Of a DNA stretch of 64,000 nt, positions 1,305 through 27,209 are shown one piece after another (the stretch's first letter is position 1; each line of letters begins with the position of its first letter). A program made the position numbers and the translations under genes. Source of the stretch: Promethearchaeota archaeon (lineage in GTDB: Archaea > Asgardarchaeota > Lokiarchaeia > Sigyniarchaeales > SOKP01); assembly GCA_030603385.1 (NCBI GenBank), contig JAUVXW010000006.1:1-64000 (forward strand), read 5' to 3'. The notes under the pieces are model-generated. The model was given only the letters and a program-made list of their open reading frames with translations. It was not told the DNA's origin and made no database searches.

Positions 1305-1350
1305 AAAAATATCAAGTCTAAACGTTATATATGACGAGTAATTAATATTG

Positions 1351-2197: not shown

Positions 2198-2237
2198 ATT
2201 TGTGAATGAATGATGGAAAAATTATTCCCTATAAGGA

Positions 2238-2654: not shown

Positions 2655-2662
2655 ATTTTTTT

Positions 2663-3115
2663 TTAAGGATCTTTACTGATATTTTGAAACTTATATTTCT
2701 CAATTGCATGTATTAGCGTTCTAATTGCTAATTCTCCACAATGTTTATGGTCATCTGGTAAACCTCCTAAAGCGTTGTCAATATCTATTGGTTTTAAACT
2801 CTCGGCAAATTCCAATGGTTTTCCTTCTATCATCATTGTTGTTTGACTACCTGCTGCTACTGTCGCTCCGCAACCATCAGTTATAAAATTAGCTTTTTCA
2901 ATTATATCATTCTCAATTTTTAAAAAAAAATGCATTGTATCACCACAAGGTCCCTCGTATGCATGCCACACACTTATTTCATGACTTTTTGGTTTACCCC
3001 AGTTTTTTGGATTTTGAAGCAACTCAACAATATATTCATTGTATCTCTTAACTGCTTCTTCATTTATTTCTTTCTGAAGTTCCTCTACCCATTTATCTAA
3101 ATCATCTAATGGCAT
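2663..3115 (-). CDS. IscU/NifU N-terminal-type Fe-S scaffold protein
   Basis: Three conserved Cys: GPCGD, DGCGA, KHC; LGGLP motif. Confidence 0.9.
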   Translation of the reverse strand: MPLDDLDKWVEELQKEINEEAVKRYNEYIVELLQNPKNWGKPKSHEISVWHAYEGPCGDTMHFFLKIENDIIEKANFITDGCGATVAAGSQTTMMIEGKPLEFAESLKPIDIDNALGGLPDDHKHCGELAIRTLIHAIEKYKFQNISKDP

Positions 3116-3143
3116 TTTAATGATATTTGCTACTTTATGAGAT

Positions 3144-4025: not shown

Positions 4026-4125
4026 CCTCTTTTTCTTTGAATATTTTAATTAATTAATTCAATTATATTAACTATTGACTACTGAATTAGAATAAGTTAA
4101 ATTTATAAAACATCGAATGTTTTTT

Positions 4126-4149
4126 AATTATGAATAAATATTCATAATT
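4126..4149. promoter_or_regulatory. Palindromic operator TGAAT-N4-ATTCA, copy 3 (extended)
   Basis: AATTATGAATA-AA-TATTCATAATT, perfect 11-bp arms, in the divergent mrp/nifX-like intergenic region. Confidence 0.75.
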
Positions 4150-4190
4150 TAAAAAAGTTACTAAAATTATAATAAATAAAAAAGGTTGAA

Positions 4191-4655
4191 TTGATAATGG
4201 TTGTTATAGCAATTCCTTCAATAGGAAAAGGGGGTTTGAACGATGATATGAGCCCTCGTTTTGGAAGATGTGCCAGTTTTACATTTGTTGAATTAGAGGA
4301 TAAAGAAATTAAGGCAGTTAAAACTGTTCCAAATCATGCTGCTGATGCTATGGGTGGAGCTGGTGTGCAAGCAACGCAAATAATTGGCAATAATAATGCT
4401 GAAGTAGTAATTGTCGGATTTTTAGGTCCGAATGCTTCTAATGGACTTAATGCTTTAAATATAAAGATTCTTCAAGCCCAAAATAAAAAGATGACAATAA
4501 ATGAAGTGGTGAATCTGTATATAGAAGATAAGTTGCAGGGATTAAGTTCTGCAAATGTAGGACCTCACCATGGTATGGGGGGTGGTCGTGGTATGGGCGG
4601 TGGTCGTGGTATGGGCGGCGGAAGTGGCATGGGTGGCGGAAATCGAGGTAGATGA
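4191..4655 (+). CDS. NifB/NifX-family (FeMo-co binding domain) protein with Gly-rich tail
   Basis: SPRFGRC..F, GAG...Q, GPNA; tail of GMGGGR repeats; real start may be ATG at 4197. Confidence 0.9.
   Translation: MIMVVIAIPSIGKGGLNDDMSPRFGRCASFTFVELEDKEIKAVKTVPNHAADAMGGAGVQATQIIGNNNAEVVIVGFLGPNASNGLNALNIKILQAQNKKMTINEVVNLYIEDKLQGLSSANVGPHHGMGGGRGMGGGRGMGGGSGMGGGNRGR
4572..4643 (+). repeat. 18-bp coding tandem repeat x4 (GMGGGR/S/N)
   Basis: ggtatggggggtggtcgt / ggtatgggcggtggtcgt / ggtatgggcggcggaagt / ggcatgggtggcggaaat. Confidence 0.85.
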
Positions 4656-4703
4656 GTTAATTCTTAAGAAAACTATGATTTATATCGGAAAGATTAAAGT
4701 TTT

Positions 4704-5627
4704 ATGACTGGTATTAAGCCTAAGACAATTTGTATTACTGGGGGTAAAGGAGGTACAGGGAAAACATTATGCGCTGTTAATATCGCAGTCATGTTTAAAA
4801 ATGAAGGATATAATGTACTCCTTATAGATGGGGATGTAGAGAACCCTAATACATACCTTTTATTAAATGGTGAACTTGAAAATAAAAGGGAAGTCCCTTT
4901 TTTCATGCCTAAAATTGATGAAGATAAATGTTCTCGATGTGGAATTTGTGCTCAAAATTGTACAAATCACGCTTTATTATATATTGATGATTCAATTCCG
5001 ATCTTAATGTCATCTCTTTGTTCTGGATGCAAATTATGTTATAAGATATGTCCAGAAAAAGCGATTGAAGCAGATTTCAAAACACTTGGTTGGCTATATT
5101 CCACTGAAATTCTTGGGCTTACACTCTTCGTCGGAGAATTAAAACCTGCAGAAGCTCGGTCAGCTGGAATTGTAGAAGCGCTTCTTGAAAATCTTGAAAA
5201 TATCATAAAAAATGAACCAAATAAGTTCGATGTTATCATTTTAGATACCGCTCCAGGAGCACATTGTGATGTAGAACTTTTAATTGAAATGGCAGATGTA
5301 AGTATTCCTATTACAGAACCTACAAGATTTGGCAAATTAGATTTAAAGAGAATAATGGAATTGATAAATTTATTGGAGAAAGATTGCAAGGTAATAGTAA
5401 ATAGATCATCATTATTGGGTTTTAGAGATCAATTTTTAGACGAATTACAAGAAGAAAACATTGAAATTTTAGGTGATATCCCAATGGACGCAGATATTGT
5501 GGATTCTTATTGTCAGGGAACACCAATTATGGATAATAATAGTGGCTATGATAATAATGGCGCAGGATTCATAGCTTTCACTAATATTTATGAAAATTTG
5601 AAAAAGTGGATAAATTTAAATGAATAA
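4704..5627 (+). CDS. MinD-superfamily P-loop ATPase with inserted ferredoxin domain (COG1149)
   Basis: GGKGGTGKT, DGDVENPN, two CxxCxxCxxxC motifs, TEPT.FG. Confidence 0.92.
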   Translation: MTGIKPKTICITGGKGGTGKTLCAVNIAVMFKNEGYNVLLIDGDVENPNTYLLLNGELENKREVPFFMPKIDEDKCSRCGICAQNCTNHALLYIDDSIPILMSSLCSGCKLCYKICPEKAIEADFKTLGWLYSTEILGLTLFVGELKPAEARSAGIVEALLENLENIIKNEPNKFDVIILDTAPGAHCDVELLIEMADVSIPITEPTRFGKLDLKRIMELINLLEKDCKVIVNRSSLLGFRDQFLDELQEENIEILGDIPMDADIVDSYCQGTPIMDNNSGYDNNGAGFIAFTNIYENLKKWINLNE

Positions 5628-5649
5628 TTGATAAAAGGGACGTAAACTG

Positions 5650-6576
5650 ATGGAAAGGAAAATAGTTGGGGTTGTTTCTGGAAAAGGCGGTGTGGGTAAA
5701 ACCTCAATTACAGCTTCTTTAGCAAGTCTCGCTAAAAAAGATTCAATGATGAAAGTTATTGTATCAGATTGTGATGTTGATGCTCCTAACTTAGCAATTA
5801 TTCTTCCTCCTGATGAGGAATCAAAAATAGATATTAAGGATACTTTTACTACGCTAAAATCAGAATTTTTAGAAGATCTTTGCAATAATTGCAGGCAATG
5901 TGTTGACGACCATTTCTGTGAATTCAATGCTTTACACTGGGATAGTCAAAATTCAATACCTAAAATTGATTTTTTGAAATGTGAGGGGTGTGGAGCTTGT
6001 AAAGTTTTGTGTCCTACGCATGCTTTTAAAATAGTTGCTGTAAAAAGTGGTGAAATTATATCTTATAGGAGCAAAATGGGATTTCCGTTAACATATGGAA
6101 AAACCCAATTAGGAAGCACTACATCCGGAAAACTAGTCTCAGAATCTAAAGAACATGTAAAAAATTTAAAAGAATATAATGAAAGTAATTTAATATTTAT
6201 AGATGGTCCTCCGGGAATTGGGTGTCCCGTAATTGCAACTCTTTCGAATTTAGATTATGTTATTACTGTATGTGAGCCTACACCTTCTGCATTACATGAT
6301 TTATTGAGAGTAATCGAAGTTATTCATCAATTTAATATTCCATTTGGAATTCTAATAAATAAATCAGATTTACAGAGTTCCTTTCAAAACACTTTTAGTA
6401 AATACATGAGTGATACAAATTATGAAATTTTAGGAAAAATCCCCTTTGATTTATCAATCCCAAAAGCTATGTCTTTTGCCAAACCTGTAGTACAATATGC
6501 ACCAGATTCAAAAGCGAGTCTGGCTATTAAAGAAATTTATACAAATTTAAAAAGAACATTATGGGATCAAAATTAA
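5650..6576 (+). CDS. MinD-superfamily P-loop ATPase with inserted ferredoxin domain (COG1149), second paralog
   Basis: SGKGGVGKTS, DCDVDAPNL, CEGCGACKVLCP, DGPPGIGCPV, EPTPS. Confidence 0.92.
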   Translation: MERKIVGVVSGKGGVGKTSITASLASLAKKDSMMKVIVSDCDVDAPNLAIILPPDEESKIDIKDTFTTLKSEFLEDLCNNCRQCVDDHFCEFNALHWDSQNSIPKIDFLKCEGCGACKVLCPTHAFKIVAVKSGEIISYRSKMGFPLTYGKTQLGSTTSGKLVSESKEHVKNLKEYNESNLIFIDGPPGIGCPVIATLSNLDYVITVCEPTPSALHDLLRVIEVIHQFNIPFGILINKSDLQSSFQNTFSKYMSDTNYEILGKIPFDLSIPKAMSFAKPVVQYAPDSKASLAIKEIYTNLKRTLWDQN

Positions 6577-6578
6577 GT

Positions 6579-6995
6579 TTAAATTAGTTCTCTAACAAGA
6601 AAGTAAACATTTTTAGAATTACATATGACACAATTAACTTTTCTATCTTTTGAAGCATTAGCATCGTCCCATTCATGCTTACAATCTACACATTCATAAC
6701 CCACGAACTTTGGTTTAACATCAAAATTACCTCCATATACATTAATCGCTTTCCCCTCAAGCAAGGCTAACGTATTTTTTCGATGAGCACTTTCAAGAAT
6801 CCTAGAAAATGTAGGTTGACTAACTCCCATTTTTTCAGCAGCTACTTTCTGATTTAAACCTATATAATGTTTAAGTCGCATAGCTTCAAATTCAGCAATA
6901 GTAAGTGTTATGGAATCTTCAGTTGGAGGCTCCCTGGAAAAATAAAGATTATTAGGTGTTTGAGTAACCCATCTTCGATGTCTTCTTCTTCCTAT
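6579..6995 (-). CDS. DUF134 HTH protein with C-terminal Zn ribbon; probable ATA start
   Basis: Frame extends 38 codons upstream of the tracked ATG (6881): (M)GRRRHRRWV...LTIAEFEAMRL; AAEKMGVSQPTFSRIL HTH; CVDC...CVIC; GGTGA SD 6 nt before ATA; in-frame TGA just upstream. Confidence 0.85.
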   Translation of the reverse strand: MGRRRHRRWVTQTPNNLYFSREPPTEDSITLTIAEFEAMRLKHYIGLNQKVAAEKMGVSQPTFSRILESAHRKNTLALLEGKAINVYGGNFDVKPKFVGYECVDCKHEWDDANASKDRKVNCVICNSKNVYFLVRELI

Positions 6996-7103
6996 AGTGA
7001 ATCACCAAAAAAATTATAATCTTTATATTTTTATAAGTTTAATTGATAAATACTTTAACCTTATTTATTATTGAGAGTTATATCTATATTATCGATATAT
7101 TTT

Positions 7104-7117
7104 TGAATAATTATTCA
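7104..7117. promoter_or_regulatory. Palindromic operator TGAAT-N4-ATTCA, copy 4
   Basis: Perfect 14-bp palindrome TGAATAATTATTCA between the divergent DUF134 and nifX-like genes. Confidence 0.75.
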
Positions 7118-7171
7118 TTAGATTTAAATATAAATATTGAATAATTGAATTAAAAAACAAGTTGGTTAAAA

Positions 7172-7579
7172 GTGAAAATATGTATTAGTTCGGATTCAGG
7201 AATTGTTTCAGCACACTTTGGTCGAGCTCCAGAATTTACTTTTATCACAATTGAAAACAATGAAGTAGTAGAGAAAGAATTACTTAAAAATCCAGGACAT
7301 ACTGTCGGAAGTATACCCAAATTTGTGAGTGATCAAGGAGCGAAATGTATGATTGCGGGAGGTATGGGCCCCAGAGCTGTAGATTTTTTTAATCAATATG
7401 GAATTGAAGTTATTATGGGGATTAGTGGTAAAATCGATGATGTTGTTAGAGAAATGTTGGATGGTACTTTAGAGGGTGGAGAAAGTCTTTGTTCTCCAGG
7501 AGGAGGTAAAGGTTACGGAGTCGACAAGATACATACTGAAGCTGATGATGATCATGAGCACCATCATCATCATGAGTAA
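7172..7579 (+). CDS. NifB/NifX-family protein with His-rich C-terminus
   Basis: VSAHFGRAPEF, NPGH, AGGMGPRA; tail DDDHEHHHHHE. Confidence 0.9.
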   Translation: MKICISSDSGIVSAHFGRAPEFTFITIENNEVVEKELLKNPGHTVGSIPKFVSDQGAKCMIAGGMGPRAVDFFNQYGIEVIMGISGKIDDVVREMLDGTLEGGESLCSPGGGKGYGVDKIHTEADDDHEHHHHHE

Positions 7580-7600
7580 TATTTAATATGAAATATGAAG

Positions 7601-7804
7601 TTAAAGATCTAGCTTAATTTCACCATTAGGTAGCATATTATCGGGGTGATACTCTCCGGTTTCTTCCATTTGATATCTAACACAATTCTTATTTTCTACT
7701 AAACAATAATCTTCAACCCATTTTTGGTCCAGCTTGCCTTGGTCAACAAAATATTTAATAGGGCAAACTGGATACCATTTACATATTTTATTTTTAGGTT
7801 TCAT
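7601..7804 (-). CDS. Small conserved Cys-rich protein
   Basis: CKWYPVCP...YC...CVRY...HPDNMLPNG; four Cys suggest metal binding. Confidence 0.75.
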   Translation of the reverse strand: MKPKNKICKWYPVCPIKYFVDQGKLDQKWVEDYCLVENKNCVRYQMEETGEYHPDNMLPNGEIKLDL

Positions 7805-7875
7805 TTAGTTTGTAGCTTAAATTAATCTATTTATGATTTAGAAAAAAAAGAAAAATAAAAACAATTTAAAATAAA

Positions 7876-8385
7876 TTACTTTCTAATTTGTACTTTAGGT
7901 GTAATTGGGGATGCTCCACCAAAATTAGTAATCACAGGACAATGCTTAAAAACTTTATCCATTAATTCATTAATTTTTTCTTCTGGTGCATCTGCTTTAA
8001 TCCTTATGACAGGTTCAAGTTTATCATAACCCGCAAGTTTAGTATCGTCAATTCCAAAAAGAGCCCCTAAATTAATATGACCACGTGAAAAAACTTTCAT
8101 TTCTTCGATTTTGATATCCATAATCTTAGCCCAAAATTTTGTAACCGCAATAATACAAGCACCAATAGAAGATAAAATTACTAATAATGGTGATGGTCCT
8201 TTATTTGATCCATCTAATCCCCCAGGGGCATCTATGAGTAATTCAAAAGGATCTCCTGCAGGATTACCCATTGTACATTTAACTTGCATACCCTCTGGCA
8301 ACATTTCGCATTCAATATTAAAGTTCTTTTCCCCCGCATTCCAATCTGCCTTGATGGCATCATAGGTTTCTTTAAAACTTGGCAT
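7876..8385 (-). CDS. OsmC/Ohr-family protein
   Basis: D.P..L.G.N.GPSP...GAC and HCPV motifs. Confidence 0.85.
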   Translation of the reverse strand: MPSFKETYDAIKADWNAGEKNFNIECEMLPEGMQVKCTMGNPAGDPFELLIDAPGGLDGSNKGPSPLLVILSSIGACIIAVTKFWAKIMDIKIEEMKVFSRGHINLGALFGIDDTKLAGYDKLEPVIRIKADAPEEKINELMDKVFKHCPVITNFGGASPITPKVQIRK

Positions 8386-8419
8386 ATAACTTCATCCTTT
8401 TTTATTTATAACAATTTTT

Positions 8420-8809
8420 TTAATGAGTGTGAGCATTTCCAGAGTGATCTCCACAACTAGCGTCATTTAATAACTTTAATTGACCATTGATTAACATCTT
8501 TAAATTTTTTTCAATACTCCCGTTTACCCCTTGAAATAAACTTATCTGGACTTGCTGAAAACCCATAAATGGACGCATTCCAATTCCTGTCAGAATCATA
8601 TCTGTTACATTTCTTTGTTTCATGTTCATAACCGGTTCCATGCAGCTAGAATGCCCGCCATTAGGTAATGCAAAAACTTTCCTAAACTTACCATCATCAT
8701 AGATTTCAATTCCAACAAAATAGTTACAATGTCCAAAATGAGGTGATATGTTATCAGAAGTCTCAGGGCCATCAGAAGGAATTCCAATTATTCTTTTCAT
8801 ATTTCTCAC
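8420..8809 (-). CDS. NifB/NifX-family protein
   Basis: ISPHFGHCNYF, N.GH..C, GIGMRP; His/Cys tail. Confidence 0.85.
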   Translation of the reverse strand: MRNMKRIIGIPSDGPETSDNISPHFGHCNYFVGIEIYDDGKFRKVFALPNGGHSSCMEPVMNMKQRNVTDMILTGIGMRPFMGFQQVQISLFQGVNGSIEKNLKMLINGQLKLLNDASCGDHSGNAHTH

Positions 8810-8838
8810 ACATATTCTTATTCTTGTTTTATGATTTG

Positions 8839-8852
8839 TGAATAATTATTCT
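8839..8852. promoter_or_regulatory. Palindromic operator TGAAT-N4-ATTCA, copy 5 (one mismatch)
   Basis: TGAATAATTATTCT ~30 bp upstream of the 8809 start. Confidence 0.6.
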
Positions 8853-8890
8853 TAAAACTTAAATTTAATTATTAATAATAATAATACTTT

Positions 8891-10129
8891 CTAAAAGAGT
8901 GCCAGAGGAACCTCTTTAAGTAGGTCTACAGTGGTATATTGATTTTTACCACCAGTTCTCAAATAATCCATTGCTTTTTCAATTCCTCCAATAGTCAGGT
9001 GGAAAGTGGGAATGATTTTAGAGATTTTCATCTTAGTCCACGACATCCACTCCAATCTGACTGGTTCGGGGTTTAACCAAATCACATTTCTTTTATAATG
9101 CTTAGCAATTTCACTTACATAATAAAGTCCTGGCTTTTTATTGCTTGCATCATCATAAATGGCACCATGGGGGTTGACTATTTCACTACGGTGCATAGTT
9201 TGATCTCCCACAATTATTACACGATAAGAATCGTCGTATTTTTTTAATAAATCCTCAAATTCTATTGCCTGATCTGTATTTCGTTCAGCGTTCTCGTACA
9301 AATAATTATAAATACAATTATGAAAGTAATAGTACTTAAAATCTTTCCAATGAGATATACTATTAGCTGCAGAGAACAAAAGATTTGCTTGGTGAATATA
9401 AATATCCATCGTTCCACCGACGTCCATCAATAGTAAAAGCTTTATATTATTCTTTTTCCTTTTATTGAAGATCAGCTCAATATCACCCCCATTACGCCCC
9501 GTTTCATGAATTGTCTTTGGAAGATCCAACTCATCTTTTTTCCCAATTTCATCTAATCTTCTTAGACGCTTTAACGCGATTTTAATTCGACGTGTATCTA
9601 TGACTAAGTCTTTTCGATAATCTTTAAATATCCTTTTTTGAGCGATTTTTACCGCGGTTTGCATACCATAGCCACCAGCAATTCTAAATCCTTCTATATT
9701 TAGACCTGAGTGCCCGAATTTTGATTGTCCTTGCGTACCAATCCACATATTTCCAAAATTATGTTCTCCATCCTGTTCTCTAAGTAGCTTTCTGAATTGT
9801 TTTTCTAAATCTTCCAAACTTGTATATTCAAAAAATTCTTTTGAAATTCCGGGCATACGGAGGATTGAAATATTTGTTTGGAGCCACTCCCAAATCTCTT
9901 GTTTAATATCTTCAGGAAAATCTAAACCAGCATCTTTAAAATAGTTAGCGAAAGCAATGTCATAGATATCAAAATGATGTTCATTCTTGCAAAGAATTGA
10001 ACGAGAGATATAATAAAAATCAACTGTGTTCTTTATTAAACCCTTATCAAGTGCCTCCAATAAGGTCATAAATTCTGTAATACTAACCGGTAATATTTTC
10101 TTAAGGTAAAAAAAATAGTCTAAAAACAT
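8891..10129 (-). CDS. VWA domain protein (CoxE-like/COG3825), MoxR partner
   Basis: WIGT.G.S.FG, LLLLMDVGGTMD MIDAS-like motif, YYFHNC, IIVGD, IWLNP. Confidence 0.88.
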   Translation of the reverse strand: MFLDYFFYLKKILPVSITEFMTLLEALDKGLIKNTVDFYYISRSILCKNEHHFDIYDIAFANYFKDAGLDFPEDIKQEIWEWLQTNISILRMPGISKEFFEYTSLEDLEKQFRKLLREQDGEHNFGNMWIGTQGQSKFGHSGLNIEGFRIAGGYGMQTAVKIAQKRIFKDYRKDLVIDTRRIKIALKRLRRLDEIGKKDELDLPKTIHETGRNGGDIELIFNKRKKNNIKLLLLMDVGGTMDIYIHQANLLFSAANSISHWKDFKYYYFHNCIYNYLYENAERNTDQAIEFEDLLKKYDDSYRVIIVGDQTMHRSEIVNPHGAIYDDASNKKPGLYYVSEIAKHYKRNVIWLNPEPVRLEWMSWTKMKISKIIPTFHLTIGGIEKAMDYLRTGGKNQYTTVDLLKEVPLALF

Positions 10130-16112: not shown

Positions 16113-16996
16113 TTATGTTGGGAACTTTAGTTTATCCAAGGCAATCTCAAAGTCTTTCTCTTTTTTTATTAAAACTCCAAGAAATGGAATATTTGTGCGT
16201 AACTCCTCAATAGTAATTCCACTTTTCAATAACACACCAATCCAATCAAGGAGTTCAGAAGTAGAAGGTAATTTTCTCATTTTCGTTATAGCCCTTAATG
16301 CATAGAAATGGTTAAGACATTGTTCCAATAAATTCACTTTTAAATTCGGATAATGAAGGTTACAGATATCTGCCATAAATTCTCTAGAAGGAAACTCAAT
16401 CCAATGGAATACGCATCTTCTTAAAAAGGCGTCAGGAAGTTCTTTTTCATTATTAGAAGTAATGATGACTATTGGTCTGGTTTTGGTCCTAACAAATTCT
16501 TTTGTTTCTTTGATATAAAACTCCATAACATCCAATTCTTGGAGCAAATCATTCGGAAATTCTATTTACAGTAATGCTAATTATTATTTAGCATTATATC
16601 TGCTTTATCGATCTCATCGATAAGAAGAACGACCTGCTCATCAGAATCAAAAGCTTCTCCTAATGGACCAAAAGTAATATAATCATTAATATTATCAACA
16701 TCGCGATCCTCACAGCCAAATCTACTATCATTCAATCTTTGAACGGTGTCGTACATGTAGCATCCGTCGATGCCTTCAGTTGTACTCTTAATATTCCAAA
16801 TTATCAATCTTTTGCCTAAGTTTAACGATATCGCATGGGCTAGCATAGTTTTTCCTGTTCCAGGCTCTCCTTTCACTAATAAAGGGCGTCCTAAAGCAAT
16901 AGACACATTAACAATATTTCTAAGCTGTGGGTCTGCTAAATACTTAACAGTTTCTGTTTTTACGTCTCCTTTAAATTTATTAAAAGTAGCATCCAT
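16113..16996 (-). CDS. MoxR-family AAA+ ATPase, split into two exons (16996-16598, 16565-16113; 283 aa after splicing)
   Basis: Walker A GEPGTGKT, YDTVQRLNDS, Walker B LLIDEIDKAD in the 5' part; EFPNDLLQELD, ITSNNEKELPDAFLRRC, PSTSELLDW in the 3' part; joined in frame by removing 32 nt. Confidence 0.92.
16566..16597 (-). other. Candidate bulge-helix-bulge-type (EndA-spliced) 32-nt intron in moxR mRNA
   Basis: mRNA: GCAG-AU^A-UAAUGCUAA-AUAAUAA-UUAGCAUUA-CUGU-AA^A-UAG; 9-bp stem, 4-bp central helix GCAG/CUGU, 3-nt bulge; canonical cuts restore GAU AUA GAA UUU. Confidence 0.78.
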
Positions 16997-17297: not shown

Positions 17298-17768
17298 TTG
17301 ACAAAAATGAGTAAAAATAATGATGAAAATGTACCCAACGAAAATGGTCAAAAACCTTCAAAATCCAAATGGTGGAAAGTTTGGATATTAACCAATATTT
17401 CGATGGTCGGTTCGGGAATATTTGGTTATTTCTTCTTTCATGTTGATTTTGGACTCATCATTATATATGAAATTATCTTTTCTTTAGCCTTAGGTATTGC
17501 CTATTATATCCGTATAAGACCCTCTATAAAGGTGAATAAAGCGGTTTACATTTTACTTGGAATCACCCCCATCGGGTTTGGCTTATGGATATTGTACGCA
17601 GTTGTGTGTGGATTAACGAATTTTTGTCATTTCCTAAACAATCTTAGACCTTATGGGTATGTGCTTAATATAGTATTTCAAATACTTCTTTTTATTATAG
17701 GAGGATTTATTGGGAATTGGATAGGTAAGACAAGAAAATATCGCCTTCCTTTAAGGCCTTATACTTAA
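17298..17768 (+). CDS. Hypothetical membrane protein (~4 TM)
   Basis: Four hydrophobic segments. Confidence 0.75.
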   Translation: MTKMSKNNDENVPNENGQKPSKSKWWKVWILTNISMVGSGIFGYFFFHVDFGLIIIYEIIFSLALGIAYYIRIRPSIKVNKAVYILLGITPIGFGLWILYAVVCGLTNFCHFLNNLRPYGYVLNIVFQILLFIIGGFIGNWIGKTRKYRLPLRPYT

Positions 17769-17808: not shown

Positions 17809-18300
17809 ATGAATTCTAGTATTACTAGAAAAGATCGAGAAATGCCTTATACTCCTTTAATAGGTTTTAGTACTTCAATGATTTTTATTTTAGTATGGAT
17901 GAATGATAACCTTTTTTCAATCTCAGTTATCTTAAATAGATCTTGTCCGTTTATTATCAGATCAATCTTATTTTTTATAATATTGTGTTTAGGAGTGATT
18001 TTTATATATCTTTCACGTAAAACTTTGCTTCATGATGGTGAACTTTCAGATACACTTATTACTAGAGGAATTTATGGGCGTGTAAGACATCCATTGTATC
18101 TTGGGGGGCTTTTAATTTTCTTATCATTCATTCTGTTATCGATTTCTTTGATTTCCATAGCTCTATTTATTATAATGTTCATCTTATACAACAAAATGGC
18201 AACCTACGAAGAGAAAATTCTAGAAGATATGTTTGGTGTACAATATTTAGATTATAAAAAACAAGTGCCAAAATGGATTCCCAAACTAAAGAAAAATTAG
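17809..18300 (+). CDS. Isoprenylcysteine carboxyl methyltransferase/PEMT-family membrane methyltransferase
   Basis: LITRGIYGRVRHPLYLG...EE..L...FG.QY.DY...VPKWIP. Confidence 0.9.
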   Translation: MNSSITRKDREMPYTPLIGFSTSMIFILVWMNDNLFSISVILNRSCPFIIRSILFFIILCLGVIFIYLSRKTLLHDGELSDTLITRGIYGRVRHPLYLGGLLIFLSFILLSISLISIALFIIMFILYNKMATYEEKILEDMFGVQYLDYKKQVPKWIPKLKKN

Positions 18301-18811: not shown

Positions 18812-19921
18812 TTGAATATGCCCAATATCACATCTCTAATCGCTCGAAGAATTAAACCTATTTGTGCAGTATGGGAAATTACGTTAAGATGTAATGGCAA
18901 TTGTATTCATTGCGGCTCAAAAGCTGGAAAGAGTCGCCTTAACGAGTTGAATACTCATGAAGCTTTGACGTTGGTAAAAGAATTATATGATTGCGGTTAT
19001 AAAGGAGTTGCATTAATGGGTGGAGAACCATTAATTAGAGAAGATTGGTATGATATTGCTAAAGAAATAAAAAAATATAATATGGATTTATCAATTGTAA
19101 CAAACGGATTAAACTTAATTCAACATATTCAAAATCTAAAAAAGTTAGATGCAGATTGTGTAAGTTTAAGTTTAGATGGAGGTACTCCAAAAACACATGA
19201 TTACATTCGGGGAGTTCAAGGATCATTTGAAAAAACACTAGAAGCTATTGGTAAGTTAAAGGATTTAAAAATACCTATAAGTGTTATCACGAGTGTTAAT
19301 AAAATTAATTTTAAGGAATTGAACTTAATAAAAAATTTACTTTTAGATAGAAATATTGCTTGGCAAATTCAAATTTGTATCCCAATTGGACGTTTTCCTA
19401 AAGAATTAGTTATAACAAGGGAGGAATTTTACACCATAGCATTATTTATAGCGATTAATCAAAAAAAATATTCGTATAGAAGATTACCATTAATAGGAGC
19501 CCATTGTTTTGGACATTTCTCAAGATTTATACCAAATTTGGGATTAACTCCGTGGGTTGGATGTCAGGCAGGATTATCCGTTTTGGGGATTCAAAGTAAT
19601 GGAAATATTAAAGGATGTTTAACACTTCCAGATGAGTTTATTCAAGGAAACGTAAGAACTCAGAGTTTAAAAGAAATTTTAACTCGGTTAAGATCTAATA
19701 AGAGAAAGTTAAATCGATTGTGTGTAAATTGTGATTTAGTAAATTCATGTATGGGAGGTTGTTTGGGAACAGCTTATGCACTAAACTGTTTTGAAGATCC
19801 TTATTGTTTAAGATCAATCGAAAAAAAATTATTTAATTTAGAAGAATTGCCTATTAGGGGAAAATTAGATTCAACATTCTCAAAATTCAAAAATTTATAT
19901 TACAATTCAATATTCAAATAA
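18812..19921 (+). CDS. Radical SAM/SPASM domain protein
   Basis: CNGNCIHC, MGGEPL, SLDG; SPASM: CQAG...GNIKGC...CVNC...CMGGC...C. Confidence 0.93.
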   Translation: MNMPNITSLIARRIKPICAVWEITLRCNGNCIHCGSKAGKSRLNELNTHEALTLVKELYDCGYKGVALMGGEPLIREDWYDIAKEIKKYNMDLSIVTNGLNLIQHIQNLKKLDADCVSLSLDGGTPKTHDYIRGVQGSFEKTLEAIGKLKDLKIPISVITSVNKINFKELNLIKNLLLDRNIAWQIQICIPIGRFPKELVITREEFYTIALFIAINQKKYSYRRLPLIGAHCFGHFSRFIPNLGLTPWVGCQAGLSVLGIQSNGNIKGCLTLPDEFIQGNVRTQSLKEILTRLRSNKRKLNRLCVNCDLVNSCMGGCLGTAYALNCFEDPYCLRSIEKKLFNLEELPIRGKLDSTFSKFKNLYYNSIFK

Positions 19922-19955
19922 TTTATATTTTAAGAAAAATGGTGAAATTACTACA

Positions 19956-20204
19956 ATGTTTAAAGATTTTTTTCAATTATATCAAATTGGTAAGGAATTA
20001 GGATTAAATAAGAAAGAAATAAAGAATATATTCTTATTTGACAATTCAAGGCATTATATATTATACACGATCTTATTGATTGTATCCATTGTTGCATTTG
20101 GGATTTTAATGATTATTTTAGGTATACAAGCCTTTAGAAATACATATCCCTCAGGAACATTGTATTCAACAGTAAAGAAAAAGGATTTTAACCGAAGAAA
20201 GTGA
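19956..20204 (+). CDS. Small single-TM protein, paralog A (candidate precursor peptide)
   Basis: MFK...QLYQIGKELGL.KKEI leader, TM helix, TYPSGTLYSTVKKKDF tail; GGTGA SD. Confidence 0.85.
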   Translation: MFKDFFQLYQIGKELGLNKKEIKNIFLFDNSRHYILYTILLIVSIVAFGILMIILGIQAFRNTYPSGTLYSTVKKKDFNRRK

Positions 20205-20304
20205 ATTTAATAAATGTAATTTAGAAAATATATAATTTTAAATTATCGTTAGTAAAAGAACTCTAAATAGAGGCGTTTTTATAATATTAAGATTAGGAGG
20301 GGAA

Positions 20305-20586
20305 ATGTTTAAAGGAATTATTCAATTGTACCAAGTAGGTAAAGAATTAGGCTTAACAAGAAAAGAAATTAATGGATTATTTTTCTTTAGAAAAGAGGCT
20401 CATAGTTTAAGATATAAAATCATATTCTATATTATTTTGATAATTACTATGTCCTTAATTGGATTAACATTAGTATTAATAAGAATTAGCATTACTAGAG
20501 ATACTTATCCTAGCGGAACAAAATATTCTACCATTAGGATAAAGGATTTTAAGAAGAAATTAAAGATTTTTATTCAAATAAAATAA
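20305..20586 (+). CDS. Small single-TM protein, paralog B
   Basis: Same architecture; TYPSGTKYSTIRIKDF; AGGAGG SD. Confidence 0.85.
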   Translation: MFKGIIQLYQVGKELGLTRKEINGLFFFRKEAHSLRYKIIFYIILIITMSLIGLTLVLIRISITRDTYPSGTKYSTIRIKDFKKKLKIFIQIK

Positions 20587-20616
20587 AATTTTAAAAAATG
20601 AGGTGAAATTACTACA

Positions 20617-20871
20617 ATGTTTAAAGGATTTTTTCAATTACATCAAATTGGTAAGGAATTAGGATTAAATAAGAAAGAAATAAAAAAGATATTCTTATTT
20701 GACAATTCAAAGCATTATATATTATATACAATCTTATTGATTGTATCTATTGTTGCATTTGGGATTTTAATGATTATTTTAGGTATACAAGCCTATAAAA
20801 ATACATATCCCTCAGGATCATATTACTCAACAGTAAAGAAAAAGGATTTCAAACGAAGAAGGCGAATTTAA
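20617..20871 (+). CDS. Small single-TM protein, paralog A'
   Basis: Near-identical to 19956-20204 including the upstream GGTGAAATTACTACAATG; TYPSGSYYSTVKKKDF. Confidence 0.85.
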   Translation: MFKGFFQLHQIGKELGLNKKEIKKIFLFDNSKHYILYTILLIVSIVAFGILMIILGIQAYKNTYPSGSYYSTVKKKDFKRRRRI

Positions 20872-20915
20872 TTAAGGATTTTAAGAAGAAATTTAGATGT
20901 GAATACTCTTAAAAA

Positions 20916-22262
20916 ATGAGAATAAATGTAGGTTGTGGAAAAAAATTCGAACCAGAATATTATAATATAGATTTATATGAAGATTTAATAGCAGATAAGC
21001 TAATGTCTGCTGTTAATCTTGAAATCGATGACAATATCTGTGAGGAAGTAAAAGCAATTCAAATTATTGAACATTTATCTTTTTTTGAAGCTATTTATGC
21101 TCTAAATGAATTCTTTCGTGTCTTGCAGTTGAAGGGTAAATTAATTATTGAAATCCCTGATCTGATGAAAGCATGTCAATTGTATTTAAACTCTAATGAT
21201 GAACAGAAAAAGATTGTATTAGGGTGGATTTATGGAATACCAGATAAAGGATTGCAACACAAATTCTGTTTTCCTGCTTACTTATTAACAGAAATATTAG
21301 AAAATATCGGATTTATAAATATTAAAACTACAAAATTTTCTAACTCTGAATCGATTCCAATATTGAGATTTGAATGCTATAAACCTGTAAATTGGGATGA
21401 TGCTGAAATCTTCCAGATCTTGGCAAAAATGCACAAAATACTACGATCTGAAAACTATATTGATTTTACTAATTCTCTTATGGTTAAGGAACAAGAAGAT
21501 TTATTATCTTTATATTTAGTTAGATTACTTGAATTTCGAAAAAAGAAGAAAAAAGAAATTTTTTTTGAGATGCTTATTGAATCCTTGATAAAATGGCCCC
21601 AATCTGTTAAAATATTATTAAGAGTTCTAAAAGATAAAAATTTCATTTCTCAGTTGGAGAACAAACATATTCTTAATGTAACAGATCTCTTAATTCAGTT
21701 AAATTTTCCCAATATTTTGTGCTACTCATTGAAAAATGTATTTATTTATCCCGGAACTCAGAAAATAGCATTTTCCTCAATTGAATCCTTTGCGAGGAAG
21801 ATAATAAAAAAATTGATACAAAATGATGAAGAAAAAGATAAAATAATAAGTAAATTGAAAATGTTGTCTGATAAAACTGAATATCCAGAGATAGAATTCT
21901 TTTCTCTTAAAGTTTTAGAAAAGAAGGCATTAGATTATTTTTATCTTGGAATTAAAGCTTTTTATGGAGAAAATTACAAAATCGCATATAATCGTTTTCT
22001 GAGAGCTATAAAACTTTATAGAGATGATTTCTTATATTTTTGGAATCTTGCTAAGATTTTAGTAAAGCTACATCAAAAGAATGAGGCAATTAGATATTAT
22101 AAGAGAACACTTAGGTTAGTAAAGATAACTAAAATTGGCAAAAAAAATACTATTCGAAACGAAATCATTAAAGAACTTAATTGTTTAAAGAAAGATAAAG
22201 AAGCTGCTCAAGAATTCAAACCAGTAATGTCCATCGAAAATCTATTAAATAAAGTTAATTGA
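20916..22262 (+). CDS. Class I SAM-dependent methyltransferase-like domain fused to C-terminal TPRs
   Basis: INVGCG...NID...IIEHL...RVL...GKLIIEIPD; TPR-like YFYLG...A...F.RAI.L.../LA......EAI.YY. Confidence 0.8.
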   Translation: MRINVGCGKKFEPEYYNIDLYEDLIADKLMSAVNLEIDDNICEEVKAIQIIEHLSFFEAIYALNEFFRVLQLKGKLIIEIPDLMKACQLYLNSNDEQKKIVLGWIYGIPDKGLQHKFCFPAYLLTEILENIGFINIKTTKFSNSESIPILRFECYKPVNWDDAEIFQILAKMHKILRSENYIDFTNSLMVKEQEDLLSLYLVRLLEFRKKKKKEIFFEMLIESLIKWPQSVKILLRVLKDKNFISQLENKHILNVTDLLIQLNFPNILCYSLKNVFIYPGTQKIAFSSIESFARKIIKKLIQNDEEKDKIISKLKMLSDKTEYPEIEFFSLKVLEKKALDYFYLGIKAFYGENYKIAYNRFLRAIKLYRDDFLYFWNLAKILVKLHQKNEAIRYYKRTLRLVKITKIGKKNTIRNEIIKELNCLKKDKEAAQEFKPVMSIENLLNKVN

Positions 22263-22452: not shown

Positions 22453-23235
22453 CTAATTATTGAGTTTTGATAGGTGTTTTTTATTGATTGGGCATACATC
22501 TAAGCATGTGGTACAACCAATAGTATATTCTAATAAGAAGGTATTCGAAATCAATTCAATATTCTTTAAATATTCCTGATCATAAGGATGTAATATATTG
22601 ATCCCATGCTTAACTGTATTTGGTAGACAGGTCATCTTTTTAAAATTACCACTTTTGTCAAATGCTTTATTAGGGCACTTATCAACACACAAATTACATT
22701 CTTTGCATACATTATCTTTCATTATCGGATCTGCAATTAGTTTTGCGGTTGTTATTACAGCTGACAACCTCAATAATGTGCCATGGATTGGATGAATTAA
22801 CAACCCATTTTTTGCGATTTTTCCGAGACCTGCTGCCAATCCTGCATGTTTTAATGAAATAATTCCCCACGGTTGAAAATTCTCTATTGCTAGAGGATTA
22901 TACGATGGAATGGAAATCGAATAATAGCCAAGAGATTCAACATAATGAGCTAATCTGACTCCTGTAATATCTAAAAATTTATATAAACTATGATAGGCTC
23001 TATGAACAAGGTTAGTATGATGATTTTTCAATCTAAAAATTGATCTTGGCATTGATTTACCAAAAACAATAACTGAATTAGCATCTTCCAAGATATTTTT
23101 TGGTTGATGAGATTCCGGTGCTTCCAGGAAAAGATCGTTATTCACATCTGCAATCCCAACTATATCCATGTCGGCTTTTAAAACAAATTTTTTTACTTTA
23201 TCTGTTAGCTCTTGATTTCGATTCGTTTCTGACAT
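22453..23235 (-). CDS. Epoxyqueuosine reductase/reductive dehalogenase-like 4Fe-4S protein
   Basis: DIVGIA, SLKHAGLAAGLG.I.KN.L, CKECNLCVDKCP, C...CTTCLDVCP. Confidence 0.8.
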   Translation of the reverse strand: MSETNRNQELTDKVKKFVLKADMDIVGIADVNNDLFLEAPESHQPKNILEDANSVIVFGKSMPRSIFRLKNHHTNLVHRAYHSLYKFLDITGVRLAHYVESLGYYSISIPSYNPLAIENFQPWGIISLKHAGLAAGLGKIAKNGLLIHPIHGTLLRLSAVITTAKLIADPIMKDNVCKECNLCVDKCPNKAFDKSGNFKKMTCLPNTVKHGINILHPYDQEYLKNIELISNTFLLEYTIGCTTCLDVCPINKKHLSKLNN

Positions 23236-23333
23236 ATTAAATCCCCATAATTAAAATTCCTAATTATAACTCATTTCTTTGTTAAGAAATAATTATTTAA
23301 TTATCTATTTTTTGAAAAAAAAAAAATTTGATT

Positions 23334-24509
23334 TTAATCACGTTGACCAAGAATAGTCACTGAACAAACGGCATAAGCGCCTCCCAAATTGTGAGCTAAG
23401 CCAAGTTTAGGTTCAGGAACTTGTCTTCCTTCAGCTCTTCCTTGAAGTTGTTTAGTAACCTCCTGGACCATTCTGCAACCGGTACTTCCTATTGGATGGC
23501 CAAATGATTTAAGTCCACCACTTGGATTCACTGCTGTTTCCCCATCCCAATTAAACGTACCATTTTTTAATTCTTCAGCTGCTTTCCCTCGCTCACAAAA
23601 TTGCAGATCTTGACAGTTCAATAACTCAGTTATTGTAAAACAATCGTGAACTTCTGCTAAGTCAATTTCCTTCCTGGGATTTATAATACCTGCTTCTTCG
23701 TATGCCATTTTTGCCGCATCAACAGTAGCTGGAGCTGATATGAAATCAAAATTTGTATCATACCAGGGGTAAGCCGTATGTACAGAAAGTGAATTGGATT
23801 TAACAAGAATATAATCATCGGCGTGAGCATAAGATTCTGCTAGTTCGGGTCGGGTTAGGATTAGTGCAGCAGAACCATCACTCATTGCGCAACAATCAAA
23901 TCGTCCTAAAGGATCTGCAATCATAGGAGCATTTAAAGCTTGTTCTAATGTAATTTTAATTCTGAAATGGGCTTTTGGATGATAATAACCATTCTCATGG
24001 TTCTTTACAGCCACACGTGCTAAATCCTCTTTATTCCAACCATATTCATGAAAACTACGAGTAGCAAGTAAGCAAAACATCGCTGGAGCTGATGGACGCG
24101 GTAATACAGGATGACCCATTACTGTAGTACCAGGAAGACCTCTTCCTCCCTCATCCATCAATTTTTCCACACCACAAGCCATAGCCACGTCATAGGCTCC
24201 AGAAGCAACCCCAAAACATGCATTACGAAAGGCATCCATACCTGAGGCGCAGTAGTTCTCGACTCGAGTTATTGGTTTACCACCTAACCTTAATGAATCT
24301 TCTAAAGTAGTTCCAGAAACACCTGTAAAGAAGTAATAAACTCCAAGCCAAGCTGCATCAACTTCCTCTTTAGTGATACCAGCATCTTTTATAGCTCCTT
24401 GAGTTGCTTCAAAAAGTAAATCTTCTTTGCTTTTATTCCATAATTCACCATATTTTGTAGCATCACATCCAATAACGGCAACTTTATCTTTAATACCATG
24501 TGCAACCAT
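23334..24509 (-). CDS. Thiolase (SCP2/archaeal-type acetyl-CoA acetyltransferase family), paralog 2
   Basis: ENYCASG, EVHDCF, NPSGGL, GHPIGSTG, HNLGG. Confidence 0.93.
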   Translation of the reverse strand: MVAHGIKDKVAVIGCDATKYGELWNKSKEDLLFEATQGAIKDAGITKEEVDAAWLGVYYFFTGVSGTTLEDSLRLGGKPITRVENYCASGMDAFRNACFGVASGAYDVAMACGVEKLMDEGGRGLPGTTVMGHPVLPRPSAPAMFCLLATRSFHEYGWNKEDLARVAVKNHENGYYHPKAHFRIKITLEQALNAPMIADPLGRFDCCAMSDGSAALILTRPELAESYAHADDYILVKSNSLSVHTAYPWYDTNFDFISAPATVDAAKMAYEEAGIINPRKEIDLAEVHDCFTITELLNCQDLQFCERGKAAEELKNGTFNWDGETAVNPSGGLKSFGHPIGSTGCRMVQEVTKQLQGRAEGRQVPEPKLGLAHNLGGAYAVCSVTILGQRD

Positions 24510-24567
24510 GTATTTAACCTCATTTGTTAAATAAATTTAATAAAAAAAATATTTGATTTTTAATTTT

Positions 24568-25755
24568 TCAATCCCTCTGTCCCAAAATCGTGACTGAGGC
24601 AACACTGAAAGCACCCCCAAGATTGTGACATAAACCAATCTTAGCATCAGGAACTTGTCTCCCTTCAGCACGACCTTGCAATTGTTTAGTTATCTCTTGA
24701 AGCATTCTACAACCTGTTGAACCGATTGGATGCCCAAATGATTTCAAACCTCCACTTGGATTGATTGCTGTTTCTCCATCCCAATTAAATGTTCCATTCT
24801 TTAATTCTTCAGCAGCCATACCACGGTCGCAAAATTGCAGGTCTTGGTCATTGATAAGTTCGGTAATGGTAAAACAATCGTGAACCTCTGCTGCTTCAAT
24901 CTCTTTTCTAGGATTGGTAATCCCCGCCTCTTTATATGCCAATTTAGCAGCTTTAACCGTTGAGGGGAAACTCGTAAAATCTGCCCCAGGTCCATTAGGT
25001 GGAACATACCATGGAAAATTCGTCCTTGCTGATATTTGATTTGATTTTACTACTATATAATCGTCCGCATGTGCGTAACTCTCAGCAAGTTCGGGTCTTG
25101 TTAAGATTAATGATGCTGCTCCGTCTGACATTGCACAACAGTCGAATCGGCCAAGAGGGTCAGCAATCATAGGAGCTTTCATCGCTTGTTCAATTGTAAT
25201 TTTACTTCTAAAATGGGCTTTTGGATGATATGAGCCATTATCATGATTTTTCACTGCTACTCGAGCTAGATCTTCTTTTGTCCATCCAAATTCATGAAAA
25301 CATCTTGTTGCTGCCATTGAAAACATTGCAGGAGCAGATGGTAATGGTAATACAGGATGCCCAAATATCTTAAATCCAGGTAATCCACTTGAACCTTCAT
25401 CCATAAGTTTTTCAACGCCACATGCGAGAACTACATCATAAGCACCACTAACAACACCAAAACATGCATTTCGAAAAGCATCCATACCTGAGGCGCAGTA
25501 GTTCTCGACTCGAGTTATTGGGATACCATCAAGCCTTAAAATATCTTCAACTGTAGCACCTGACATACCAGTAAAATAATAGTAGATCCCTGCCCAAACT
25601 GCCTCAATCTCCTCTTTTTTGATTCCAGCATCTTTAAGAGCACCTTGAGTTGCTTCAAAAAGTAAATCTTCCCTTCCCTTATCCCATAATTCTCCATATT
25701 TCGTAGCATCACATCCAATAATAGCAACCTTATCTTTAATTCCTTTTACTGCCAA
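24568..25755 (-). CDS. Thiolase (SCP2/archaeal-type), paralog 1
   Basis: Same motifs; TTG start with GGAGGTG SD. Confidence 0.93.
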   Translation of the reverse strand: MAVKGIKDKVAIIGCDATKYGELWDKGREDLLFEATQGALKDAGIKKEEIEAVWAGIYYYFTGMSGATVEDILRLDGIPITRVENYCASGMDAFRNACFGVVSGAYDVVLACGVEKLMDEGSSGLPGFKIFGHPVLPLPSAPAMFSMAATRCFHEFGWTKEDLARVAVKNHDNGSYHPKAHFRSKITIEQAMKAPMIADPLGRFDCCAMSDGAASLILTRPELAESYAHADDYIVVKSNQISARTNFPWYVPPNGPGADFTSFPSTVKAAKLAYKEAGITNPRKEIEAAEVHDCFTITELINDQDLQFCDRGMAAEELKNGTFNWDGETAINPSGGLKSFGHPIGSTGCRMLQEITKQLQGRAEGRQVPDAKIGLCHNLGGAFSVASVTILGQRD

Positions 25756-25769
25756 CTTTTACACCTCCT

Positions 25770-27209
25770 TTAAAATCTCCCTCTTATTGGTCGACATTTC
25801 CAATAGTAATTCTTGAAGTCCGCACCTTCATGCTCTTTTCTAAAAGTTAATTCAACTTCCATTCCGATTTTTACATTATCTTCTGGATTTTCTATTTCTG
25901 TCATATTTAGCAAAATCCGCCCGCCACCATCAAGATCTATTACACAACGTGGAACAGGTGTAGCTAAATATGAACCCCCAACTAGATGATCTAGTGTGTA
26001 AGTAAATATTTTACCTTTTAGCGCAAGTTTAACAAGTTCCATTTGATCATCAGCTCTACACACGATACAAGAACGGAATGTAGAAGGATATTGAACAGTC
26101 CCACAACTTTTACATCGATTACCGTACATTTTATATACAGTAAGAGTATCACGCCACATTGTCACAGCTGAGCTTTTTCTTACATACCGGTCTTTTGCAA
26201 GGAGTTTTTTACTTTCAATATACACATTATAATTTTGTAGAGTTTTCATTGATTTTTGGTGCCCTGCCATGCCCATATGATTTTTGGATAGTTCTCTCAG
26301 AGCTCTTCTATCTTGAACATGCATCAATATCGCATCGGCACCATCACCATATCCAGCTAAAATTATTTTTGCTTCTTCTTTTGGGCGCTTCATAGCAGAA
26401 ATTAGCAACATAAAAGACATTGGAGTTCCGAGGTCACCAACTTGAAAAAATAATCCATTTTGGGCGACACCTTGGCTGAATTTCATTCTCTTGGAGATAC
26501 GACCATGTGTTCGGGGATTATTATAGTAGTATGCAGCTACATCAATATCTTCAGGATTCAAGTTATTTCTTTTCATAATCTCAGACATTACTCTTGTAAT
26601 ACTTTGAGTATAAATTTGGTTGTCCATTTTCGATTCAAAGGTTCTAATAAAATTATCTTCTTTAGCCCTTTTCCAGGGGCCTGTAACATTAACTGAGATA
26701 GAATAATAATCATCAATAATAATAGGCAGGTTTTCTCCTTCTGAAACCAAGAGAGCAGCAGCACCATCAGCATATCCAAATTCATACATAGTTGCAGGTT
26801 CTGCTTCTCTAGTATCTGAAGCGATAATAAGTATGCTGCTGATGTCTTTATTTGCTTTAATGGTATCCATTGCTCTTGCTAAGGCCGTTGTTCCTGCCTT
26901 CAAGGAATCTGTAAAATCTATAGTTATAATATCTTCTCTCATATCTAATACGGTAGCTATGAATGAGGCTGAATCTTTTTCAGTATACACTTGAGTTGTA
27001 GAAGCAAAATACAAACCGTCAATACTCTTTGGATCAATTCCGCTTAAACAATCTAATCCTGCCTCTACAGCCATAGTAAGACTATCTTCATCAACACTCG
27101 CAATAGCTTTAGTACCGGGGACTGTTGGAAAGTCCCACGCTTTAGCAATCAACTCACGGGGCATAAGATATTTTGGTAAATATGCGCCATAAGACTTTAT
27201 TCCTATCAT
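25770..27209 (-). CDS. HMG-CoA synthase-like domain fused to DUF35 (Zn ribbon + OB fold)
   Basis: MIGIKSYGAYLP, DEDSLTMAVEA, GYGDGADA; CKSC...CIVC and GMEVELTFRK. Confidence 0.9.
   Translation of the reverse strand: MIGIKSYGAYLPKYLMPRELIAKAWDFPTVPGTKAIASVDEDSLTMAVEAGLDCLSGIDPKSIDGLYFASTTQVYTEKDSASFIATVLDMREDIITIDFTDSLKAGTTALARAMDTIKANKDISSILIIASDTREAEPATMYEFGYADGAAALLVSEGENLPIIIDDYYSISVNVTGPWKRAKEDNFIRTFESKMDNQIYTQSITRVMSEIMKRNNLNPEDIDVAAYYYNNPRTHGRISKRMKFSQGVAQNGLFFQVGDLGTPMSFMLLISAMKRPKEEAKIILAGYGDGADAILMHVQDRRALRELSKNHMGMAGHQKSMKTLQNYNVYIESKKLLAKDRYVRKSSAVTMWRDTLTVYKMYGNRCKSCGTVQYPSTFRSCIVCRADDQMELVKLALKGKIFTYTLDHLVGGSYLATPVPRCVIDLDGGGRILLNMTEIENPEDNVKIGMEVELTFRKEHEGADFKNYYWKCRPIRGRF

Follow-up and report, generated by a model that had tools for sequence, protein, structure and literature searches.

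We analyzed a window of 64,000 nt (positions 1–64,000 of contig JAUVXW010000006.1, from a Promethearchaeota archaeon), in which five genes, all on the + strand between positions 18812 and 22262, encode an enzyme with a radical S-adenosylmethionine (SAM) and a SPASM domain, three small paralogous peptides, designated here pepA, pepB and pepC, and a methyltransferase fused to tetratricopeptide repeats (TPR). It is rather probable that these genes form a modification system like those for peptides that ribosomes make and that are then modified post-translationally (RiPPs), with a core tethered to the membrane. An earlier note on this DNA, made from the sequence alone, had read the locus as a cluster of this composition; the five co-oriented open reading frames (ORFs) are all present, and the Pfam matches, the peptide alignment and the profile matches agree with that reading. 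The genes are separated by gaps of 34, 100, 30, and 44 nt, and a Shine-Dalgarno-like sequence (GGTGA or AGGAGG) closely precedes the ATG of pepA, pepB and pepC. The ORF for the enzyme spans 18812–19921 (369 aa) from a TTG, and the gene probably starts at the ATG in position 18818 (coordinates 18818..19921), because its orthologs begin with MPNITS.

The product of pepA (19956–20204, 82 aa) comprises a putative leader (residues ~1–30), a transmembrane (TM) helix (residues ~35–57) and a tail with the putative core NTYPSGTLYSTVKKKDF and a basic end, as deduced from alignment and profile. The gene pepB (20305–20586, 93 aa) has diverged from its paralog pepA (46% identity) and encodes the same kind of leader and TM helix, followed by the putative core DTYPSGTKYSTIRIKDF; its distinctness is seen in the alignment and in its own set of B-type orthologs (P0018–P0025). 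With 88% identity to pepA, pepC (20617–20871, 84 aa) is a recent duplicate of this gene, whose upstream region was copied along with it. None of the three peptides contains cysteine, and they all combine the leader MFK..QL.Q.GKELGL..KEI with a single hydrophobic helix and with the tail TYPSG..YST...KDF. Their 35 invariant columns include G12, L15, G16, L17, K20, E21 and I22 in the leader and T63-Y-P-S-G67, Y70-S-T72 and K76-D-F78 in the tail, with the general tail pattern Y-x-x-G-x-x-Y-S-T-x-x-x-x-D-F; the cores from the window all read Y-S-T, and Y-G occurs at that place only in relatives. The similarity among them is far beyond chance, since a profile built from the three peptides matched 105 protein clusters with E values down to 1e-43. 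All the named sources of these clusters are Asgard archaea (Lokiarchaeota, Promethearchaeia, Hermod-, Hod-, and "Odin"-archaeota). When 35 diverse members are compared, G12, L15, and G16 of the leader never change, nor do Y64, G67, Y70, and D77 of the tail; the sequence of the TM segment varies freely. The source genome of the window contains only the three copies pepA, pepB and pepC. Searches with the peptides against Pfam, NCBIfam and PADLOC retrieved no family matches, and a search of the ESM Atlas with pepA and one TM-less relative retrieved no usable match. Likewise, the literature searched on SPASM RiPPs of Asgard and other archaea, on GDL-motif peptides and on methyltransferase-TPR partners contained no description of this peptide family.

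The peptide array also shows traces of a recent local duplication, in window positions 20540–20616 and 20874–20912. The region upstream of pepC and the odd C-terminal extension of pepB (LKIFIQIK) were copied from the 3′ end of the enzyme gene and from the stretch that precedes pepA. Immediately before the methyltransferase gene, a B-type peptide gene has left a fragment of its 3′ end (20874..20912, + strand), which translates as KDFKKKFRCEYS followed by a stop and matches the C-terminal ends of P0018, P0021, and P0022; as judged from its sequence, it is the original B-type 3′ end, left in place by the local duplication.

Pfam models for Radical_SAM (7.8e-27) and SPASM (1.8e-6) match the enzyme, a putative peptide maturase, and both the CX3CX2C motif (C27, C31, and C34) and the seven cysteines of the SPASM domain (C251, C269, C304, C307, C313, C317, and C332) are invariant in 19 orthologs. 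Its scores are below the cut-off of every NCBIfam family, including nif11-class maturase 3 (TIGR04103; 195 bits vs. a cut-off of 725), the GDL-motif peptide maturase (TIGR03913; 165 vs. 592), AhbD (136 vs. 500), MftC (113 vs. 265), NirJ (110 vs. 515), AhbC (109 vs. 650), and PqqE (74 vs. 381), and there is no cyclophane-enzyme family among the 25 best NCBIfam matches. The closest solved chains by sequence were SkfB, BlsE, PqqE, and MoaA, and the nearest folds to the enzyme model, with a predicted local distance difference test (pLDDT) value of 80, were PqqE, SkfB, BlsE, SuiB, CteB, MoaA, and anSME, with PqqE as the top match (E = 2.5e-15). This enzyme class fits with peptide modification, because the top-ranking families and structures are SPASM or twitch enzymes that modify peptides. 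Conversely, the enzyme is not a member of AhbC/D or NirJ, a grouping which the earlier note had named as speaking against its proposal: its scores are far under the respective cut-offs, its best sub-threshold matches are peptide maturases, and there are no heme-pathway genes nearby. Only around 20 residues precede the CX3CX2C motif, which leaves no room for a RiPP recognition element (RRE), and Pfam did not reveal any PqqD match in the enzyme.

These same matches bear on a different explanation, according to which the cluster would produce a peptide-derived cofactor, in the manner of pyrroloquinoline quinone (PQQ) or mycofactocin: a conserved, tyrosine-derived redox-active or catalytic group that is used by the cell itself, tethered to the membrane in Asgard archaea, and not a secreted or competitive peptide. 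In this case, too, the enzyme would have the small proteins as its substrates. We consider this rather unlikely. PqqE is indeed the nearest solved structure, and the family matches under threshold include the maturases of mycofactocin and PQQ; however, MftC and PqqE both stay below their cut-offs, with the scores given above, and the cluster lacks a PqqD/MftB-like RRE partner. The distribution and the copy number of the peptides, described below, also bear on this explanation.

The last gene of the cluster (20916–22262) encodes a 448-aa protein whose AlphaFold2 model (pLDDT 92.4) shows an alpha/beta domain (residues 1–155) followed by an all-helical domain (residues 160–447). The N-terminal domain matched many class I SAM methyltransferases in Foldseek searches (prob 1.00), and the glycines of the GxG motif I (G6 and G8), as well as the acidic residue after strand 2 (D19), are invariant in the orthologs. 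A profile search against the PDB located a TPR stretch in residues 336–412 (5e-18). The orthologs of this protein were found in 178 clusters; among 37 of them, Methyltransf_11 was detected in 21 and TPR_2 in 18, all of which agrees with its initial description as a methyltransferase-TPR fusion.

We fetched 26 loci around peptide matches from three families of the phylum (designated with L numbers), and scored them as far as each contig reaches. All 26 carry orthologs of the enzyme and of the 448-aa protein together with 1–4 peptides per locus; short contig-end pieces excepted, identity to the window proteins ranges from 45 to 86% for the enzyme and from 27 to 78% for the methyltransferase-TPR protein. 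Gene order is variable (e.g., peptide-methyltransferase-enzyme-peptide in L009 and enzyme-peptide-methyltransferase-peptide in L060), and in the distant loci the rest of the neighborhood is not conserved around the module. No gene for lipid biosynthesis is conserved with the module among the 26 loci, nor is there any conserved cofactor-using enzyme near it. The RRE domain, protease and exporter that the earlier note had described as not evident in the cluster are indeed lacking: the enzyme has only the short N-terminal stretch mentioned above, the C-terminal part of the 448-aa protein is all helical, and neither a protease nor an exporter is conserved with the module.

A survey of 400 genomes of the phylum found the peptides in 82 and the enzyme clade in 110. 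Within the window's own family, each of them occurs in 57 of 134 genomes, and the two genome sets are nearly identical. In the window's own genus the module is present in 30 of 53 genomes, and the genomes without peptides, including some that are 100% complete, are also without the enzyme. Since genomes of the same genus that lack one component also lack the other, the module is accessory and is inherited as a unit. We did not find any peptide homolog away from this SPASM clade, either in the 26 loci or in those of the TM-less relatives described below, and their presence coincides at the genome level, as anticipated by the proposal that they always sit side by side.

A patchy distribution, together with the resemblance of the radical SAM core to prokaryotic viperin models (86 bits with PADLOC), could be expected from an anti-virus defence or conflict system in which the radical SAM enzyme makes an antiviral small molecule, as viperins do. 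This is, however, very improbable, because the match to viperin spans only the generic radical SAM core (residues 14–206), while viperins have neither a SPASM domain nor a tight pairing with peptides that carry a leader; additionally, the peptides and the methyltransferase match no PADLOC model, and the module has a fixed chromosomal neighborhood in the window's relatives.

An exhaustive profile search of 1.84 billion representatives retrieved 177 peptide matches (representatives at 50% identity), and around 30 of the examined members have no TM helix. These TM-less members contain either one leader followed by 2–6 tandem repeats of the motif YKAGTxYGT(V/I)SPK(D/E)(L/F), or 2–3 leader-plus-core units, and they adjoin the same enzyme clade (44–49% identity to the window enzyme); enzyme relatives for this TM-less type amount to 1,935 at E ≤ 1e-40. 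In L064, the six-core peptide P0298 is directly upstream of the enzyme (48.6% identity), whereas L082, L083, and L085 contain TM-less peptides, an enzyme with 44–47% identity to that of the window and a homolog of the 448-aa protein. Likewise, L086, from Thermoplasmatales (CP070798.1), contains a 60-aa peptide followed by a 122-aa peptide with two leader-core units, an enzyme 59% identical to that from L064, a methyltransferase-TPR protein and a CapK/PaaK-like ligase. A single leader followed by repeats of the tail motif is the standard look of a multi-core RiPP precursor, and we see in it the strongest argument for the tail being the modified part.

Some of these loci contain further genes. 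The cluster in L064 (positions 1–8100) is richer: its two SPASM enzymes are accompanied by a radical SAM enzyme that binds B12, by an S9/alpha-beta hydrolase and by an Rce1-like protease, plus a further 51-aa ORF with a single core motif; a 442-aa protein from this locus was considered as the counterpart of the 448-aa methyltransferase and rejected, as they show no similarity. The CapK/PaaK-like adenylate-forming ligase adjoining the module in L086 (positions 8366–9748), which has a similar-sized and similar-looking protein in L082 (positions 2603–4006), might serve as an additional tailoring enzyme.

In other families of the phylum, the genes for the enzyme and for the methyltransferase-TPR protein abut and are flanked by 1–8 tandem paralogs of 143–178 aa, which show a similar leader and three TM helices (L070, positions 3567–5013; L075, 1159–5041; L076, 2198–3609; and L078, 4464–8989). 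The leader glycine, a Y-P just after the first TM helix, and the tyrosine from a C-terminal Y-G-(V/T)-(Y/F) are invariant in these 3-TM paralogs. From sequence comparison, their two invariant tyrosines are the equivalents of Y64 and Y70 from the window peptides, which gives the impression of a TM hairpin inserted between the two.

Part of this variation is relevant for the cofactor explanation. The conservation of two tyrosines and one aspartate across the phylum and in the Thermoplasmatales locus fits a cofactor better than it fits an arms-race peptide, and the lack of a conserved exporter or protease also agrees with a product retained by the cell. Nevertheless, the patchiness of the module even within a single genus, its absence from complete genomes, the existence of up to eight paralogous copies per locus and of multi-core precursors, and the lack of a cofactor-using enzyme in the vicinity would all be at odds with a cofactor, and we favor a RiPP-like system.

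The complex between the enzyme and pepA, each with its own alignment, was modeled in three runs and with three controls and scored by ipSAE. Scores for the pair were 0.39, 0.65, and 0.71 (median of 0.65), and the best control scored 0.00; the scoring mark was reached by 58 of 80 solved complexes and by 2 of 110 mismatched pairs, figures that are a rough guide only because our own alignments were used. The runs agreed in at least 77% of the contacts, and the pLDDT of the partner was at least 67. The modeled interface comprises pepA residues 5–26 and enzyme residues 167–171, 204–219, 239–240, and 340, in a patch that includes Y207, F212, and I213, which are invariant in the 19 orthologs. The model thus supports a direct binding of the leader to the enzyme, and the confident contacts involve the leader instead of the TM helix or the tail. 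The division of the peptides into leader and core, as originally suggested, is in accordance with this modeled docking as well as with the organization of the multi-core relatives.

Given that the leader-enzyme contact is the only one modeled with confidence, and that leader and tail are predicted on opposite faces of the membrane, the peptides could instead be membrane adaptors, whose cytoplasmic N-terminal helix recruits both enzymes to the membrane, where they would act on something else, e.g., a lipid of the archaeon or a precursor of its cell envelope. Radical SAM enzymes acting on archaeal lipids exist, and GDGT-MAS is among the structural matches, with a low rank. We nonetheless deem such a role quite unlikely: the TM-less homologs, which have tandem tail motifs and adjoin the same enzyme clade, cannot be membrane anchors, four of the six residues that are invariant in the family (G12, G16, Y64, G67, Y70, and D77) lie in the tail, a full two-cluster SPASM domain is typical of peptide maturases, and lipid-biosynthesis genes are not conserved with the module.

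Membrane topology was deduced from the distribution of basic residues. As many as 171 of the 204 TM-bearing members have more Lys plus Arg in the 15 residues before the TM helix than in the 15 residues after it, and the 3-TM forms show basic stretches before TM1 and between TM2 and TM3. Because the N-terminal flank of the TM is more basic, the leader is most likely cytoplasmic, and an odd number of TM helices (1 or 3) with a cytoplasmic leader would leave the core outside, away from the cytoplasmic enzyme. All three window peptides have one TM helix between leader and core, as described in the earlier note, which had, however, overlooked this opposite-face consequence. There are two possible ways around it. 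First, the core could be modified before insertion, which is plausible for the 1-TM forms: the TM helix of pepA ends around 25 residues before the C-terminus, from which we infer that the peptide could be completed and modified while still in the cytoplasm, its insertion following later in a way similar to that of tail-anchored proteins. Second, the orientation could be reversed, as weakly hinted at by the basic KKKDFNRRK end that follows the core in the Loki forms.

Several observations weigh against a RiPP-like system with a tethered core. The predicted location of leader and core on opposite faces of the membrane is difficult to reconcile with a cytoplasmic enzyme, and modification before insertion is an assumption that becomes awkward for the 3-TM forms; the basic end just mentioned is a weak argument for the reverse orientation. 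Besides, the complex model does not place the tail in the active site, the fetched loci show no protease or exporter that consistently accompanies the module, and the core is unusually conserved for a RiPP, being near-identical across the families of the phylum and in the Thermoplasmatales locus.

With these reservations, the RiPP-like system could operate as follows. The radical SAM/SPASM enzyme would recognize the helix-Gly-helix leader (IGKELGLxKKEI) directly, without an RRE, and would then act on the C-terminal core Y-x-x-G-x-x-Y-(S/G)-(T/S). The most likely product would contain one or two cross-links, either carbon-carbon or carbon-oxygen, that involve the two invariant tyrosines or positions adjacent to them; our guess from known SPASM chemistry is a three-residue cyclophane or a similar cross-link. 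The methyltransferase-TPR protein would subsequently methylate this product. In the Lokiarchaeon, the TM helix between leader and core would keep the modified core tethered to the membrane instead of released, if modification in the cytoplasm came first and tail-anchored-like insertion afterwards.

The closest known systems include the RRE-independent SPASM maturases of RiPPs (SuiB/streptide, CteB, SkfB, and the families TIGR04103 and TIGR03913), which share with the system in the window the fold, the three-cluster architecture, and a short adjacent precursor with leader and core, in some cases multi-core. In contrast, the window enzyme is far under the family cut-offs, has no N-terminal RRE domain and comes from an archaeal host; the core contains no Cys, Trp or Lys-Trp pair and is separated from the leader by one or three TM helices, and a methyltransferase-TPR fusion is a constant partner. 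The pairs PqqE/PqqA and MftC/MftA are comparable in that a SPASM enzyme acts on a tyrosine from a small and highly conserved peptide, PqqE being moreover the top structural match, but here there is no PqqD/MftB, no E-x3-Y motif and no C-terminal Val-Tyr, and the peptides occur in multiple copies and patchily. The aromatic-X-X units of the tail (Y-P-S and Y-S-T), often repeated and next to a SPASM enzyme, resemble those of triceptides, a likeness limited to the motif; a three-residue cyclophane of the triceptide type is what we take to be the most plausible reaction for the window peptides. Other pathways are more distant: the core cysteine needed for the thioether of sactipeptides and ranthipeptides is absent from pepA, pepB and pepC, the X-Y-G core motif of spliceotides (PlpX) is absent from the window cores, and, unlike in RRE-dependent pathways, there is no PqqD-like RRE in the enzyme or in a partner protein. 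Finally, tail-anchored membrane proteins similarly have a single TM helix ending around 25 residues from the C-terminus and an N-terminal part that is cytoplasmic, as is predicted here, although the 3-TM relatives do not fit their definition.

For archaea, RiPPs of this enzyme class have hardly been reported other than as predictions (PMC12144867). The only characterized archaeal SPASM enzyme modifying a protein that we found in the literature, CrpC from Methanococcus voltae, likewise acts on a neighboring protein, CrpA; however, CrpC contains an RRE, and the links that it forms on its Cys-rich substrate are thioethers (PMC13692751), whereas the window peptides are Cys-free. In the literature searched we found no characterized case of an archaeal peptide with a tyrosine core modified by a radical SAM enzyme. 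The family described here is large, extending over several Asgard lineages and one Thermoplasmatales genome, and placing a TM helix between leader and core would be an uncommon means of keeping a modified peptide on the cell, which raises the question of when and where cytoplasmic radical enzymes can modify membrane proteins. The relatives offer a natural series of forms, from soluble single-core and soluble multi-core to 1-TM and 3-TM, and the tail yields a clean tryptic peptide, NTYPSGTLYSTVK, that can be searched for in existing Asgard proteomes. More speculatively, the module might display, on the membrane's outer face, a peptide group that derives from tyrosine and is cross-linked and methylated. 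The TPR domain would shield the TM helix while the precursor is modified in the cytoplasm, before a tail-anchored-like insertion, and the displayed group would be used by syntrophic Asgard archaea for contact between cells or for redox exchange outside the cell. We regard this as unlikely; if true, such a surface-displayed, tethered "RiPP" would represent a new class of surface-anchored membrane protein matured by a radical SAM enzyme.

Metatranscriptome contigs from two libraries of a single study cover the enzyme gene of close relatives (window positions 18842–19894). One contig is of 881 nt with 16 differences (98% identical) and the other is of 1,053 nt with 102 differences (90% identical), and one of them shows a high word depth. 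They are a weak hint that the enzyme gene is transcribed in sediment communities, although the contigs may reflect DNA carry-over.

Upstream of the cluster and on the same strand there are genes for a 156-aa multi-TM protein (17298–17768) and for a 163-aa membrane methyltransferase similar to ICMT/PEMT (17809–18300). Both were considered as parts of the module but were discarded, since all the other fetched loci lack homologs of either; with the Rce1-like protease from the distant locus L064, both families of CAAX-type processing enzymes occur near such modules. Further upstream, on the − strand, a gene for a MoxR-like AAA+ protein (16113–16996) is split in two ORFs of 139 and 144 aa, which form one contiguous 283-aa gene in the relatives L007, L011, L060, and L061. 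Downstream, also on the − strand (22453–27209), there are genes for an Fe-S protein similar to QueG and reductive dehalogenases, two thiolase paralogs, and a fusion of the HMG-CoA-synthase/DUF35 type. The Fe-S protein, one thiolase and the HMG-CoA-synthase/DUF35 fusion are found in identical order in L011, and the Fe-S protein is also present in L007 and L008, indicating that the module occupies a fixed chromosomal place in close relatives.

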